Shown here: in pieces, positions 4,732 through 8,256 of the stretch
How the letters are laid out: each line of letters opens with the position of its first letter
Numbering within the stretch: the stretch's first letter is position 1
Assembly: GCA_005222965.1 (NCBI GenBank)
Contig: NJBG01000001.1
Coordinates: 499,061 to 549,532, forward strand
Origin: Candidatus Woesearchaeota archaeon B3_Woes
GTDB lineage: Archaea; Nanobdellota; Nanobdellia; Woesearchaeales; B3-WOES
Length of the DNA stretch: 50,472 nt
Direction of reading: 5' to 3'
Notes under the pieces: model-generated
Seen by the model: the letters and a program-made list of their open reading frames with translations, nothing else
What the model was told of the DNA's origin: nothing
Database searches by the model: none
Made by a program: the position numbers and the translations under genes

Positions 4732-5757
4732 ATGGGAATAGCATTTAAGGACATCATTCTAGGAAAAGAGATAGACATTAAAACCTTAAAAGGAAAAACC
4801 CTGATCATAGATACATTTAATCTATTATACCAATTTCTCAGTAGCATAAGATCAAGAGATGGGTCTTTGCTTACAGATTCTCAGGGAAACGTCACAAGCC
4901 ACCTAATTGGATTATTTTCTAGAATAACAAATTTACTCCAATATGATTTAAAATTAGTATTTGTTTTTGATGGAGAACCCCCTTCTTTAAAACAAAAAGA
5001 AAGAGAAAGAAGAAAACAATCCAAAATACAAGCCCAAAAAAAATACGAAACAGCAAAAGCAAAAGAAGACATAGAATCAATGAAAAAATATGCATCAAGA
5101 ACAACAGCACTTTCACAAGAAATGATAGAAGACGCCAAAAAATTAATACAATATTTAGGATTGCCAATAGTACAGGCCCCATCAGAAGGAGAAGCCCAGG
5201 CAGTTTATATTGCTAAAAAAGAAAACTGTTTTGTAGTAAGTCAAGATTATGATTCCTTGCTGTACGGCATACCCCAACTTATAAGAAATTTATCAATACT
5301 AGGCAAAAGAAAACAAACAAATAAACTAAGTTATACAACTGTTAAACCAGAGATAATTGACTTAGCAGATGTTCTTAATAATTTAACAATAGATTTAGAC
5401 CAGCTAATAGCAATGGCCATGTTAATAGGCACAGACTATAATCCTGGCGGGATTAAAGGGATTGGCCCTAAAAATGCATTAACCTTAGTCAAAAAATACA
5501 AAAAAGATTTTGATAGTTTATTTAAAGAAGTGAAATGGAACGAGTTTTTTGATTTTGAATGGAAAGAAGTATATGATTTATTTAAAAAAATGCCGGTTAC
5601 AGATGATTATGAACTAAAATGGAAAAGTATTAATACAAAAGAAATAAAAGAATTTTTATTAAAGCACGATTTTTCAGAGGAAAGAATAAATTCAACCTTA
5701 GAAAAACTTGAAAAAAAAGAAAATTCAAAAAAACAAAAATCACTTTTTGAATTTTAA
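4732..5757 (+). CDS. fen: Flap endonuclease 1
   Basis: LYQFLSSIR, VFDG, APSEGEAQ, SQDYDSLL, GTDYNPGGIKGIGPK; C-terminal PIP box QKSLFEF. Confidence 0.97.
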   Translation: MGIAFKDIILGKEIDIKTLKGKTLIIDTFNLLYQFLSSIRSRDGSLLTDSQGNVTSHLIGLFSRITNLLQYDLKLVFVFDGEPPSLKQKERERRKQSKIQAQKKYETAKAKEDIESMKKYASRTTALSQEMIEDAKKLIQYLGLPIVQAPSEGEAQAVYIAKKENCFVVSQDYDSLLYGIPQLIRNLSILGKRKQTNKLSYTTVKPEIIDLADVLNNLTIDLDQLIAMAMLIGTDYNPGGIKGIGPKNALTLVKKYKKDFDSLFKEVKWNEFFDFEWKEVYDLFKKMPVTDDYELKWKSINTKEIKEFLLKHDFSEERINSTLEKLEKKENSKKQKSLFEF

Positions 5758-5776
5758 GACAAAAGAGGAATAAAAA

Positions 5777-6643
5777 ATGTTACCTTGGTGGGTTTTTGCC
5801 TTCGCATCTGCAATATTTGCTACGTTTTTTACAATATTTAGAAAAAAAGGAACACGCAAAGAAAACGCACTAGAATTTGAACTCACAAGAACAACCTTTA
5901 ACGCACTTTTTGGGCTGCTGCTTCTGCCTTTTCTGACATTTAAATATACACTTACTTCAATTCTAATAATCTATTTTACATCTATTCTTGCTTCTATAGG
6001 GATTTTATTGGCATCAAAATCTTTAAGACATTCAGAAATATCACAAGTTATCCCATTACATAATCTGACCCCTGGTTTTTTGGCTGTTTTGGCTTTCTTA
6101 TTTTTAGGAGAAACATTAACTAGAAACCAAATAATTGGATTGGTTTTTTTAATAATTGGAGCATATGTATTAGAAACAGAACACCATAATCCTCTCAAAT
6201 CTTTTTTAAAACATCTAAAATCTAGATACGTAGATTACGCAATTATCTCAGCTTTTATATTTAGTATTACAGCACTACTAGATAAATATATTATTAATCT
6301 TTATACAACCCCTTTTGATTTTTTATTTTTAATCTGGATTTTTATAGCAATTAATTTTATGATAATCTCCTTTATATCACACAATGGAATAAAATCAATA
6401 AAAAATTGCATAAAAACAACAAAACACAACGTTGTTTTGACAGCTTTCTTTAGTTTCTTAGCAAACGCTTCTTATTTATATGCACTGTCTCTCACTTATG
6501 TCTCTTTAGTAATGCCAATAAGCAAATTATCTATTTTGATGAGTACACTAATCGGAGGAGAAATTTTTCATGAAAAAGGAATTTTAAAAGGAGCAATTTC
6601 TTCAGTTATTATGATTATAGGAACCCTCCTTATAATTATTTAA
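5777..6643 (+). CDS. EamA/DMT family transporter
   Basis: About 10 hydrophobic segments in two repeats with LFLGE and IFHEK motifs. Confidence 0.85.
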   Translation: MLPWWVFAFASAIFATFFTIFRKKGTRKENALEFELTRTTFNALFGLLLLPFLTFKYTLTSILIIYFTSILASIGILLASKSLRHSEISQVIPLHNLTPGFLAVLAFLFLGETLTRNQIIGLVFLIIGAYVLETEHHNPLKSFLKHLKSRYVDYAIISAFIFSITALLDKYIINLYTTPFDFLFLIWIFIAINFMIISFISHNGIKSIKNCIKTTKHNVVLTAFFSFLANASYLYALSLTYVSLVMPISKLSILMSTLIGGEIFHEKGILKGAISSVIMIIGTLLIII

Positions 6644-6654
6644 GTTAATCTAAA

Positions 6655-8256
6655 ATGCCCACACTAAAACAAACACTAAAAGGAAAATTAACAAGACAAG
6701 AACTGCAGCTAGTCCCCTCATCATTCGATGTAGTTGGTTCTATCCTGATTTTCTCAGAGTTTCCTAAAGAATTAGAAAGAAAAGAAAAAATAATTGCTCA
6801 ATCTTTAATCAAAGAATTAAAAAACGTAAAAACAATTTGTAAAAAAACAAGAAAATACTCTGGTAAACACAGAACACCAAAACTAAAAATTATGGCTGGA
6901 GAAAAAACAAAAGAAACAATACATAAAGAAAACAATATAACACTAAAACTAGATGTTGAAAAGGTTTATTTCTCCTCCCGACTCTCTAACGAAAGATTAA
7001 GAATTTCTAAATTAATAAAACCAAAAGAAAATGTTCTTGTTATGTTTTCGGGTTGTGCACCTTATCCTTGTGTAATAGCTAAAAACACTAAAGCGAACTC
7101 AATCATAGGAATTGAAATAAATCCTGTTGCTCACAAATATGCCCTTGAAAATATCAAACTAAACAAAATAACCAACACAACATTACATAAAGGCGATGTA
7201 AACAACATTTTACCAAAAATAGATTTTGAAGGAATAGCATTAAAATCAAGATGGCATAAAAAATATATTGGACCAAAACTAAAACAAAACCCCCCTTTAA
7301 TAGAATTTTATCTTCCAGAAGGAGATCTTGAATCTGATAAAAAACGAAAACAGATGGACAAAACAATAAAAAAACTTGCAAAAAAACAAATTAAAGTTAT
7401 GATCCATTCACCTCACGTTTATAACAAATCTAGGGAAATGTATTTAGCACAACACCCAGCAAAAATAAAGAACATAATAGAATGCATCAAAAAATTAGAT
7501 TCTGTCCAAAAAAATAATAAAAATGTTGTAGGACACATCTTTCACTCATCAGACGATAGATTAAAAAAAGACCACAAAGAAGAATGGTTGATTAAAAACA
7601 TAAAAACACTAAAAAAACTAGATTTATTAAAATACCTCTATCTTGAAAATGGAACAACAAAACCATTTGGTACAAAAAAAAGCATATTAAATGTTATTAA
7701 AAAAACACAACTAAAAAACATGTGCTTTGATTTTGCCCATTTTATGTATCTAAACAAAAAACTAACACTTGATGATTTCAAACAAATAAATTCTAAAACA
7801 AAACTATATAATCATGCAGTTAATCATAAATACAACAGTGGAGAACACTGTTGCAGATTAAGAGAAGGGGATCTTGATTTTAGAAAATTTGCAAAATACA
7901 TAGATTTCGGTTGTGTAGAAGTATATAGCAAAAGCGAAATAACAGCAAAAGAACAAATCGAAGACTATAAATATTTTTTATCAATAAAACCAACCAAAAA
8001 ATTTGACAGAATTCTAATGCCCCTCCCAAAATCAGCAGAAGATTATCTTGATTTAGCATTAACAAGAACAAAAAAAGGAACAATAATACATTTTTATGAT
8101 TTCCTAAATGAAAAAGAATTTGATTTAGCCAAACAAAAAGTGGAAAAAGCATGCAAAAAGGCAGAAAAGAAATTTAAAGTACTGAACCTTGTTAAATGCG
8201 GCCAATTCGCACCAAAAACATACAGAATCTGTTTAGATTTCAAGATATTATCATAA
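6655..8256 (+). CDS. Trm5/Tyw2-family SAM-dependent tRNA methyltransferase with inserted TIM-barrel domain
   Basis: SFDVVGSI, HKEN, VYFSSRLSNER, MFSGCAPY, GIEINP, GDV, then after a ~258-aa insert FDRILMPLP and IIHFY; insert carries AP-endonuclease-2/xylose-isomerase-like motifs. Confidence 0.85.
   Translation: MPTLKQTLKGKLTRQELQLVPSSFDVVGSILIFSEFPKELERKEKIIAQSLIKELKNVKTICKKTRKYSGKHRTPKLKIMAGEKTKETIHKENNITLKLDVEKVYFSSRLSNERLRISKLIKPKENVLVMFSGCAPYPCVIAKNTKANSIIGIEINPVAHKYALENIKLNKITNTTLHKGDVNNILPKIDFEGIALKSRWHKKYIGPKLKQNPPLIEFYLPEGDLESDKKRKQMDKTIKKLAKKQIKVMIHSPHVYNKSREMYLAQHPAKIKNIIECIKKLDSVQKNNKNVVGHIFHSSDDRLKKDHKEEWLIKNIKTLKKLDLLKYLYLENGTTKPFGTKKSILNVIKKTQLKNMCFDFAHFMYLNKKLTLDDFKQINSKTKLYNHAVNHKYNSGEHCCRLREGDLDFRKFAKYIDFGCVEVYSKSEITAKEQIEDYKYFLSIKPTKKFDRILMPLPKSAEDYLDLALTRTKKGTIIHFYDFLNEKEFDLAKQKVEKACKKAEKKFKVLNLVKCGQFAPKTYRICLDFKILS

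Follow-up and report, generated by a model that had tools for sequence, protein, structure and literature searches.

The near-essential tRNA modification m1G37, which protects the reading frame, is made by the methyltransferase Trm5, an enzyme with a textbook structure and mechanism. The closest described forms are Trm5b (P. abyssi 5YAC; M. jannaschii aTrm5, 2YX1/2ZZN) and the bifunctional (m1G37/imG2) P. abyssi enzyme Trm5a/Taw22 (5WT1, 5HJI). In a passage of Wang et al. (2017, PMC5714064) the NPPY-type motif is given as NLPK for Trm5b and PTPK for Trm5a, and the first proline of PTPK is held to admit the tricyclic imG-14 in Trm5a.

Also relevant here are barrel enzymes of the PF01261 superfamily. 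Endonuclease IV (Nfo; E. coli 1QTW, M. tuberculosis 5ZHZ, S. aureus 8AXY) carries the motifs HxP, HPG, EN, CxDTCH and HxND, and its metal ligands we take to be H69, H109, E145, D179, H182, H216, D229, H231 and E261 (E. coli numbering). CbiR, a cobamide-remodelling PF01261 phosphodiesterase, provides a precedent for a non-DNA substrate. MJ1311 of M. jannaschii is a stand-alone protein whose structure (3WQO) was deposited as 'D-tagatose 3-epimerase-like protein'. A passage of Kiyonari et al. (2009, PMC2770678) mentions nine catalytic residues for endonuclease IV and lists MJ1311 only as a predicted EndoIV homologue.

In the literature searched we found no description of a barrel nested in Trm5. 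Such a nested two-enzyme protein is genuine. It is encoded in the window, by which we mean the whole analysed stretch of 50,472 nucleotides from Candidatus Woesearchaeota archaeon B3_Woes (contig NJBG01000001.1, positions 499,061 to 549,532). A second, predicted metallo-enzyme is nested here in the Trm5 catalytic domain, an arrangement that many families of Woesearchaeota-type archaea have kept.

Architecture of the gene and its Trm5 host

The gene and its upstream neighbours comprise the following features:

4732..5757, plus strand: FEN1 flap endonuclease (XPG_N/XPG_I; Pfam), upstream of trm5
5777..6643, plus strand: EamA-family membrane transporter between fen1 and trm5 (Pfam)
6655..8256, plus strand: whole gene, trm5 with the nested barrel; 533 aa plus stop, one unbroken ORF
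6664..6909, plus strand: TYW2_N_2 / Trm5 D2 domain, residues 4-85 (Pfam, 63.2 bits)
6916..7221, plus strand: N-part of the Rossmann methyltransferase, residues 88-189, with motif I FSGCAP, E154, motif III GD181V and helix 182-189
7222..7995, plus strand: insert, residues 190-447 (phmmer gap and AF2 models)
7234-7986, plus strand: (beta/alpha)8 barrel proper, residues 194-444, with 4- and 5-residue linkers at its ends
7243..7920, plus strand: putative metal/catalytic residues of the barrel (alignments with endonuclease IV), conserved, namely
K197 7243-7245; E217 7303-7305; H251 7405-7407; H297 7543-7545
E331-N332 7645-7650; D359 7729-7731; H362 7738-7740; Y385/H387 7807-7815
N390 (D in 54/64); H398 7846-7848; E422 7918-7920
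7996..8253, plus strand: C-part of the methyltransferase, residues 448-533, with strand beta4 FDRILM and PLPK at 8020-8031

The gaps between fen1 and the EamA gene and between the latter and trm5 measure 19 and 11 bases, and the three genes probably form an operon.

The sequence-only reading had proposed a Trm5-like methyltransferase with an in-frame insert at 7222..7995 that separates the motifs GDVNNILPKI and KKFDRILMPLP. This holds: the motifs lie at residues 180-189 and 448-458 of the 533-aa frame, and the match to PF02475 (143.7 bits against a cut-off of 28, which places the host in the Trm5/TYW2 family) is split into two stretches. The insert breaks the methyltransferase between motif III and DRILMPLPK, with the junctions KI/DFEG and PTKK/FDR. 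A phmmer search against PDB sequences aligned query residues 15-188 with residues 90-261 of P. abyssi Trm5b (5yac) and query residues 449-531 with residues 261-344. Since the two halves abut at residue 261 of 5yac, the ~259 intervening residues represent a clean insertion at one point. The G+C content (0.25-0.29) and the skews across 7222-7995 are like those of the flanks. The insert had been claimed not to be an intein; no Hint/intein Pfam match was obtained at E <= 1 and the splice-junction residues (C/S/T at +1, terminal HN) are absent.

The host gene is the only one above the PF02475 cut-off in the 96%-complete genome. Its top PDB sequence matches were Trm5b 5yac (E 3.9e-46), followed by Trm5a (E 7.5e-39) and aTrm5. 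Foldseek with the AF2 model returned 5yac (E 2e-21, TMt 0.73) as well as 5wt1, 2zzn and 3a25, matching the D2 domain and the class-I Rossmann domain D3. The best NCBIfam model was the Trm5b equivalog NF047730, with a score of 204.5 far below its cut-off of 600, and the Taw22 equivalog NF047728 likewise scored below its own (168.6 against 550), for which reason we assign the host to neither subtype. The core residues of the host are invariant in 64 insert-bearing and likewise in 19 insert-less proteins. Trm5b, with which the host shares D2, D3 and the core motifs, is thus its closest match by sequence, structure and NCBIfam model. Unlike Trm5b, the host carries a 258-residue barrel before beta4, lacks the D1 domain (PF18093, Pfam) and has PLPK in place of NLPK. 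Its NPPY-type motif is M455-P456-L457-P458-K459, in which M455, P456 and P458 are invariant (64/64). The leading proline recalls Trm5a, the second-best match, which however has PTPK and no insert. The host is best read as an intact, Trm5b/Taw22-like SAM-dependent tRNA G37 methyltransferase.

Fold and putative metal ligands of the barrel

A TIM barrel of the AP-endonuclease-2/xylose-isomerase-like superfamily with metal ligands had been anticipated from the letters, and structure prediction bears this out. AF2 models of the whole protein (pLDDT 95.1, pTM 0.88) and of the insert alone (pLDDT 95.8, pTM 0.92) were obtained, the latter being a complete (beta/alpha)8 barrel. The termini of a TIM barrel are close together, such that a loop can gain or lose a whole barrel. 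In VIA-align the barrel superposed on 50 PF01261 superfamily members with Z of 14-21 and 212-250 of 254 residues aligned. The highest values were found for MJ1311 (3wqo; Z 20.9, rmsd 2.8 A over 232 residues, 12% identity in the structural alignment) and M. tuberculosis endonuclease IV (5zhz; 20.6), and the endonucleases IV of T. thermophilus, T. maritima and E. coli gave 19.1, 19.0 and 18.2. Sugar enzymes were level with endonuclease IV (Art22 20.3, TM0416 19.8), and the modelled fold by itself cannot tell nucleases from sugar epimerases.

Sequence profiles were more discriminating. Against PDB sequences, profile A2 matched MJ1311 (2e-13) and then endonucleases IV (7e-10 to 1e-4). Profile A3, built from stand-alone proteins only, gave MJ1311 (9e-12), six endonuclease IV/APN1 sequences (1e-7 to 6e-5) and a top sugar isomerase at only E 0.009. 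No sugar epimerase was matched by the family profiles at E <= 1e-3. These profiles place the barrel on the branch of endonuclease IV and MJ1311 and not with the sugar isomerases, MJ1311 being the closest solved relative here as in the structural comparison. The insert alone reached 16.4 bits with PF01261, below the cut-off of 31.1, and matched no NCBIfam model, the nfo models (TIGR00587 / PRK01060) included. PF01261 is precomputed on more than half of the best 120 homologues listed, and 9 of 20 short relatives scanned pass its cut-off (e.g. P0156 with 68.7 and P0131 with 50.9 bits). These two were also the only scanned relatives matching nfo models, albeit weakly. The CbiR model (NF041277), which the insert itself does not match, was matched weakly by stand-alone relatives (E 1e-6 to 4e-6) and by the genome's short endonuclease-IV-like gene, with 26-36 bits against a cut-off of 105. 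PADLOC gave no matches and PHROGs one of no consequence (E 0.008).

The motifs noted earlier in the insert were all recovered: MIHSP (249-253), IFH (295-297), LEN (330-332), CFDFAH (357-362), YNH (385-387), H398 followed by GDLDF, and VEV (421-423). For the proposed IEF-x4-DL, IEF is present at 216-218 but is followed by five residues before DL. In profile alignments the barrel motifs HxP, HP, EN, CxDxxH and YxHxxD line up with the ligand motifs of endonuclease IV. K197, E217, H251, E331, D359, H362, Y385, H387 and E422 are invariant in all 64 insert-bearing proteins, H297 is kept in 62, and position 398 is H in 43 and D/E in 15. Ligand-type residues are therefore found at eight of the nine endonuclease IV metal positions, seven of them (H251, H297, E331, D359, H362, H387 and E422) invariant or nearly so and the eighth (398) being H, D or E in 58/64. 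The nine-ligand set of endonuclease IV is incomplete, as the residue matching D229 varies and the one matching H231 is conserved only in part and absent from most stand-alone copies. The family differs from endonuclease IV further in its own invariant K197, E217 and Y385 and in being nested in another enzyme. Inserts of the fused family average 33% identity compared to 51% for the cores, with the ligands still kept; the barrel has evidently been maintained over long evolutionary time.

Stand-alone copies and possible functions

Homologues with the insert, without it and with the barrel alone were all found, as the sequence-only reading had suggested looking for. Fused-form length (513-611 aa) was seen for 117 of the best 120 homologues listed (39-80% identity), many of which, the 575-611 aa forms, also keep D1 (PF18093); the insert, with its invariant ligands, is hence not unique to this genome. 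Within the order 17 of 151 genomes carry it, and most have no barrel copy at all. Among the 50%-identity representatives of the family 31 of 60 are short (<=364 aa), and in three genomes the barrel is a separate gene distant from an insert-less trm5. The barrel thus need not be covalently bound to Trm5. The catalytic-type residues that are invariant in fused copies are also invariant in the stand-alone proteins.

Around six stand-alone loci (G377, its near-repeat L106, G562, G540, G013 and L107; five distinct contexts) we found no conserved partner gene. Neighbours included a P-type ATPase (G377/L106 and G562), an amidohydrolase (beside the G377/L106 gene), an FAD oxidase and PheRS (near G540), a HerA-like gene (G013) and an AIG2-like gene (L107). 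A related-locus search with the narrow alignment A6 gave 2 loci. When the insert-less G562 Trm5 (residues 75-343) was modelled in complex with the stand-alone barrel of that genome, the score was 0.00, which carries no weight either way. In related genomes fen1 lies near trm5 whether or not the insert is present, and despite shorter flanks it was found beside insert-less trm5 at 9 of 22 loci. The fen1-trm5 synteny is thus older than the insert and not specific to it.

We favour, with a probability of roughly 0.4, a reading in which an intact Trm5 carries an active metallo-phosphoesterase of the endonuclease IV branch that would act on a nucleic-acid phosphate ester, most probably in tRNA. The ~255-residue barrel is predicted to follow the short helix behind motif III and to precede the Rossmann strand beta4, joined by linkers of 4-5 residues. 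Because it keeps a predicted multi-metal site (H251, H297, E331, D359, H362, H387, mostly H398, and E422), it is most likely an active metal-dependent phosphoesterase. Its substrate would most probably be a tRNA held by the Trm5 part, in repair or end-processing, with DNA as the main alternative. From strand topology, the insert should exit at that edge of the Rossmann sheet which is remote from the SAM pocket, and the mouth of the barrel should face away from the ends of the barrel. Both active sites would then probably work side by side and not on the same nucleotide. If the barrel does act on tRNA, the endonuclease IV clade would gain a new branch directed at RNA, and tRNA modification would be coupled in a new way to repair or processing in minimal-genome organisms.

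Several observations count against a tRNA substrate: the short proteins and the three genomes with separate genes, the many genomes without a copy, the distance between the active sites expected from topology, and the absence of Taw1 enrichment. Taw1 is present in 14 of 17 insert-bearing genomes and in 125 of the 151 genomes of the order, among which we found no link between the two; being near-universal there, Taw1 gives this comparison no power. Against a phosphoesterase count the structural tie with epimerases and isomerases, the quartet-like E-D-H-E set, the variable D229 position, the H231 equivalent that most stand-alone copies lack, and the insert's low PF01261 score and lack of an NCBIfam match. 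In a narrower version of the favoured reading, the barrel would be the first endonuclease-IV-type enzyme on RNA, tethered to a binder of the anticodon arm and cutting or trimming damaged tRNA; we regard this as quite improbable. Wyosine-type bases at position 37 are acid-labile, and candidate targets would be the abasic site left by such a lost base or a 3'-phosphate or 2',3'-cyclic phosphate end. Modification and repair would in that case be combined in Trm5, and the stand-alone copies would be free forms of the same activity.

That the barrel is instead a DNA-repair enzyme (an AP endonuclease or 3'-phosphodiesterase) carried as a passenger in a permissive Trm5 loop, with no link to tRNA, appears somewhat unlikely. 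It would agree with the DNA endonucleases IV as nearest characterised sequence relatives, with stand-alone copies that function without Trm5 and with an insert that is dispensable in most relatives. However, fen1 equally adjoins insert-less trm5, one of the nine endonuclease IV ligand positions is lost, and the genome already contains a more endonuclease-IV-like stand-alone gene (L005, 255 aa; nfo model E 1.5e-10) as well as a third PF01261 locus. Moreover, all 26 fused copies found by the stand-alone profile in a 401-genome sample sit in long ORFs (521-642 aa), and the insert occupies the identical trm5 point in all 27 aligned copies, which is odd for a pure passenger. For these searches profiles were used instead of a single-sequence genome search with the insert, which was insensitive (10 of 201 genomes).

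A small-molecule enzyme, i.e. a sugar or keto-acid isomerase, epimerase, dehydratase or other PF01261-type activity fused for co-expression or metabolite handling, is a less probable reading still. Structural neighbours of the barrel include D-psicose/D-tagatose 3-epimerases, AsbF, UlaE and the Art22 isomerase (Z 18-20), and the spacing of E331/D359/H387/E422 presumably fits the metal quartet of ketose 3-epimerases. Protein-atlas neighbours fall into generic PF01261 clusters named sugar phosphate isomerase/epimerase, and an amidohydrolase adjoins one stand-alone gene (G377/L106). Yet at E <= 1e-3 the profiles reach seven endonuclease IV-type sequences and no sugar epimerase, and none of the five stand-alone contexts revealed a conserved metabolic neighbour. 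Endonuclease IV has further metal sites that epimerases are not known to have, and H251, H297 and H362 match these. Should the substrate be DNA or a metabolite, the locus would still offer a clean natural case of a whole domain entering and leaving one loop, with fused, decayed and free forms on hand for comparison.

We consider it very unlikely that the barrel is a non-catalytic module, i.e. a structural or tRNA-binding platform that for example replaces the variable D1 and keeps its ligands for stability only. While the 533-aa protein lacks D1 and the pTM of 0.88 suggests that the barrel is rigidly attached to the methyltransferase, D1 is retained in many insert-bearing homologues. Nine catalytic-type positions are invariant in the 64 proteins although the inserts are only ~33% identical, and in the stand-alone proteins they do not vary either.

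Evolution of the insert

The state of the insert has changed repeatedly. On the tree of methyltransferase cores it requires 14 changes, compared to a shuffled mean of 15.3. A single clade of insert-bearing cores was rejected (AU p = 0.000115), and both states occur inside single families (f1, f8, f16 and f108). Pairs of equal core identity (~63%) have inserts that are 25-63% identical, and among pairs for which DNA is available even the closest share only ~60% insert identity. For the ~165-residue insert in the Trm5 of G377, decay from the barrel could not be demonstrated (hhalign E 0.39). Contigs of relatives from two DNA metagenome runs of one study, in which relatives make up a small share, span both junctions, as the sequence-only reading required of a real insert, and in one metagenome an insert-less junction is seen in relatives.

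This scattered distribution, together with a domain related to DNA-cleaving enzymes, would suit a laterally exchanged and possibly nuclease-driven cassette that enters and leaves one trm5 site and whose patchiness would stem from transfer rather than function, an idea that is compatible with the other readings but highly improbable. The core tree is poorly resolved, and its well-supported branches force only 2 changes. For one strongly supported insert clade, monophyly of the hosts was not rejected by the core data (AU p = 0.385), such that incongruence of insert and core trees is not demonstrated for this clade. Core and insert identities correlate positively (Pearson 0.48), no splicing element is present, and we know of no homing endonuclease with the fold of the barrel. 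Repeated clean loss fits the pattern equally well. An artefact, be it a chimeric assembly, a frameshifted gene pair or an intein, is practically impossible and refuted by recurrence: besides the absence of any intein/Hint match, the frame is open throughout, the insert recurs in 117 of the best 120 homologues from several data sources and in 17/151 genomes of the order, contigs of relatives bridge both junctions, and AF2 packs both domains confidently.

A barrel nested within a Trm5-like methyltransferase

The nested Trm5-barrel protein is real. Its gene lies in the following setting:

4732-5757, + strand, fen1, upstream of an EamA transporter gene
5777-6643, + strand, EamA transporter gene, between fen1 and trm5
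6655-8256, + strand, trm5 with the nested barrel, a single open frame of 533 codons
8368-10152, - strand, 594-aa open reading frame, convergent with trm5

The genes for fen1, the EamA transporter and trm5 are arranged head to tail (4732-8256), separated by 19 and 11 bases, and probably form one operon. The convergent 594-aa frame matches peptidase M29 weakly at its C-terminus (E 0.007, 35 residues) and otherwise belongs to no family; a comparable gene lies after trm5 in another locus (L023).

In Pfam searches the TYW2_N_2 domain was found at residues 4-85, while the TRM5/TYW2 methyltransferase domain (143.7 bits) was split over two stretches. Aligned with phmmer to PDB sequences, residues 15-188 and 449-531 matched residues 90-261 and 261-344 of P. 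abyssi Trm5b. Since this two-part alignment is contiguous on Trm5b, residues 190-447 constitute a clean insertion at a single point of the Rossmann fold. The sequence-only reading had placed a 258-residue insert at exactly this position (7222-7995), and every motif it had listed was found in the frame. Base composition was unchanged across the insert, and the two fused-form junctions assumed by that reading were both bridged by metagenome contigs of relatives.

The AlphaFold2 models bear out the TIM barrel that had been proposed from the sequence. For the whole protein we obtained a mean pLDDT of 95.1 and a pTM of 0.88 (64-row alignment), and for the isolated insert a pLDDT of 95.8 and a pTM of 0.92 (27-row alignment). 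In the whole-protein model residues 194-444 form a regular eight-fold beta/alpha repeat, set between helix 182-189 and strand 450-455 by linkers of 4 and 5 residues. In an all-against-representatives structural search the insert model matched MJ1311 best (3wqo, Z 20.9), followed by M. tuberculosis endonuclease IV (Z 20.6), Art22 isomerase (Z 20.3), TM0416 (Z 19.8) and the endonucleases IV of T. thermophilus (Z 19.1), T. maritima (19.0) and E. coli (18.2), and all structural alignments spanned the entire model. On the basis of these models we consider the barrel fold certain. Fold alone does not tell nucleases and sugar epimerases apart.

Predicted metal site and activity of the barrel

Judged by sequence profiles, unlike by fold, the nucleases are set apart from the sugar epimerases. 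The insert alone scored 16.4 bits against PF01261, below the Pfam cut-off of 31.1, and matched no NCBIfam model. Two profile alignments were used: A2, which combines the genome's own short endonuclease-IV-like gene with 10 inserts and 16 stand-alone relatives, and A3, built from the stand-alone relatives only. Among PDB sequences A2 found MJ1311 (2e-13) and then endonucleases IV (7e-10 to 1e-4). With A3, MJ1311 (9e-12) was followed by six endonuclease IV/APN1 sequences (1e-7 to 6e-5), and the top sugar isomerase reached only 0.009.

In the profile alignments the ligand motifs of endonuclease IV coincide with the HxP, HP, EN, CxDxxH and YxHxxD motifs of the barrel family. Nine residues (K197, E217, H251, E331, D359, H362, Y385, H387 and E422) were invariant in all 64 full-length homologues, and H297 was conserved in 62 of them. 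Position 390 was occupied by D (54 homologues) or N (10), position 398 by H in 43/64 and by D or E in 15/64. Of the nine ligand positions of endonuclease IV, eight thus carry ligand-type residues, and seven of these are invariant or almost so; at the ninth, D229 of endonuclease IV, the equivalent residue in the barrel family is unconserved. That the ligands are invariant in both fused and free barrels, although the rest of the sequence diverges fast, argues for an active metal site. The closest relatives of the barrel are three-metal phosphodiesterases acting on DNA. From the invariant ligands and these relatives, in agreement with weak matches of relatives to the CbiR phosphodiesterase and nfo models of NCBIfam, we predict that the barrel is a metal-dependent phosphoesterase acting on nucleic acid.

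As substrate we favour tRNA, although the case is weak. In its favour, all 26 fused copies from the profile search lie in long frames (521-642 aa), and the 27 aligned fused copies all carry the barrel at one and the same position in trm5. Against it, free copies of the barrel exist and most relatives lack it; Taw1 is not enriched (14/17 insert-bearing genomes compared to 125/151 overall), and the five distinct stand-alone contexts share no conserved neighbour. Moreover, the topology suggests that the insert exits the Rossmann sheet opposite the SAM pocket and that the barrel mouth points away from its own termini.

Both Trm5 and the barrel come from known superfamilies. In the searchable literature, which excludes subscription journals, we found no description of the nested architecture or of the barrel subfamily.

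The window's genome also holds a separate, more endonuclease-IV-like gene of 255 aa (nfo model, E 1.5e-10), which is only 31% identical to the insert over 65 residues. A third PF01261 match (G000:C1:948715-949017, locus L006; 37.5 bits) lies inside a 707-aa frame and covers profile positions 149-232 only.

The methyltransferase host

The genome (1.02 Mb, 4 contigs, 96% complete) contains no further PF02475 gene above cut-off. Conserved core residues were identical between the 64 insert-bearing proteins and 19 insert-less orthologues, by which measure the Trm5 host is intact. Its NPPY-type motif reads PLPK (P456-K459, window 8020-8031), with Pro replacing the Asn of NLPK. M455, P456 and P458 were invariant in 64/64 homologues, and MP(L/A)P occurred in 45 of the 47 order loci examined, insert-bearing or insert-less; the variant is not specific to the insert. 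P. abyssi Trm5a is described as also methylating the tricyclic imG-14, an activity credited to the replacement of Asn by Pro (PTPK versus NLPK; Wang et al. 2017, PMC5714064). Because Taw1 is present in the window's genome, Taw3 is not detectable there, a single Trm5 gene exists and PLPK resembles PTPK, this sole Trm5 may be a Taw22-like, bifunctional m1G37/imG2 enzyme.

The N-terminal domain D1 (PF18093) is variable: among the homologues and in loci L086-L105, fused and insert-less Trm5 each occur in short and approximately 65 residues longer forms, so that D1 and the barrel vary independently within the order. The window's Trm5 is a short form without D1.

Distribution and history of the fused and free forms

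Homologues of the fused protein, as well as insert-less and stand-alone forms, whose existence the sequence-only reading had left to be searched, were all found. Of 625 homologues, 117 of the best 120 were 513-611 aa long with 39-80% identity and near-full coverage; PF01261 was precomputed for over half of these 120. Where named, the sources were Woesearchaeota, Nanoarchaeota or Nanoarchaeia MAGs. Trm5 was present in 145 of 151 genomes sampled from the order. A single match across the whole fused profile was obtained in 17 of the 145 (frames of 524-647 aa), and four more (G229, G308, G298 and G235) were ambiguous. The rest were insert-less, with frames of 175-405 aa including a few cut fragments, among them G283 from the window's own family. 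These counts and those for Taw1 include two genomes flagged unpublished, G296 and G313, both insert-less.

The stand-alone profile matched 29 of 401 sampled phylum genomes at E <= 1e-25, all labelled as the same order; this count and the trees include G578, flagged unpublished, with the insert-bearing locus L057. Twenty-six matches were inside long frames (521-642 aa), and three were separate genes of 263-275 aa (G562, G377 and G540). Both G562 and G540 encode, at a different locus, an ordinary Trm5 without the insert. A 227-aa stand-alone member was also found in a second order of the class (G013/G029). In a representative library of 1.8 billion proteins the insert found 60 proteins, 29 of at least 444 aa with an internal match and 31 of at most 364 aa. 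Sixteen short proteins (244-293 aa), starting with M-x-IGLKS and ending just past DY.K, matched the insert end to end; the insert therefore corresponds to one entire stand-alone protein.

We built a core-only tree (273 columns) from 27 rows with the insert and 20 without it, omitting the duplicates L056 and L059 as well as L093, L079-L081, L051 and L052 (missed by the ORF filter). The two states were scattered over it, with 14 changes versus a shuffled mean of 15.3; only 2 changes were forced by well-supported branches. Uniting all insert-bearing rows in one clade cost 123.6 log-likelihood units and was rejected (AU p = 0.000115). For one insert clade, the core data did not reject that its hosts are monophyletic (AU p 0.385). 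By its core the window's protein was nearest to that of G283, which lacks the insert (71% identity); by its insert it grouped with family f74 at 100% support. The barrel tree placed 15 of its 19 stand-alone proteins in one well-supported clade among the inserts; its root, which lies on a very long outgroup branch, is unreliable. Mean identity was 33% for inserts and 51% for cores, with a loose correlation (Pearson 0.48): pairs at 63% core identity had insert identities from 25% to 63%. Three contigs of relatives in a metagenome joined a DVKKILPKI-type motif III end directly to the KKFDR segment (position 7995), i.e. the insert-less form occurs in the same sample set as the fused forms. We conclude that the insert state changed several times, through clean loss or recombinational exchange.

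In the G377 genus, Trm5 (L080:781-2262, - strand; likewise in G298, L081; 493-503 aa) carries at the same site another insert, roughly 165 residues long, which lacks the metal ligands. Profile comparison of this insert with the barrel was not significant (E 0.39); it may be a decayed barrel. G377 also encodes an intact stand-alone barrel (L031:1495-2304).

Motifs of fen1 were found near trm5 in 15 of the 27 insert-bearing loci; for the insert-less loci, whose flanks were mostly shorter, the count was 9 of 22. Given this common neighbourhood, the fused and insert-less genes are probably orthologues. The pairing of fen1, which encodes a DNA flap endonuclease, with the tRNA methyltransferase gene is conserved in the order.
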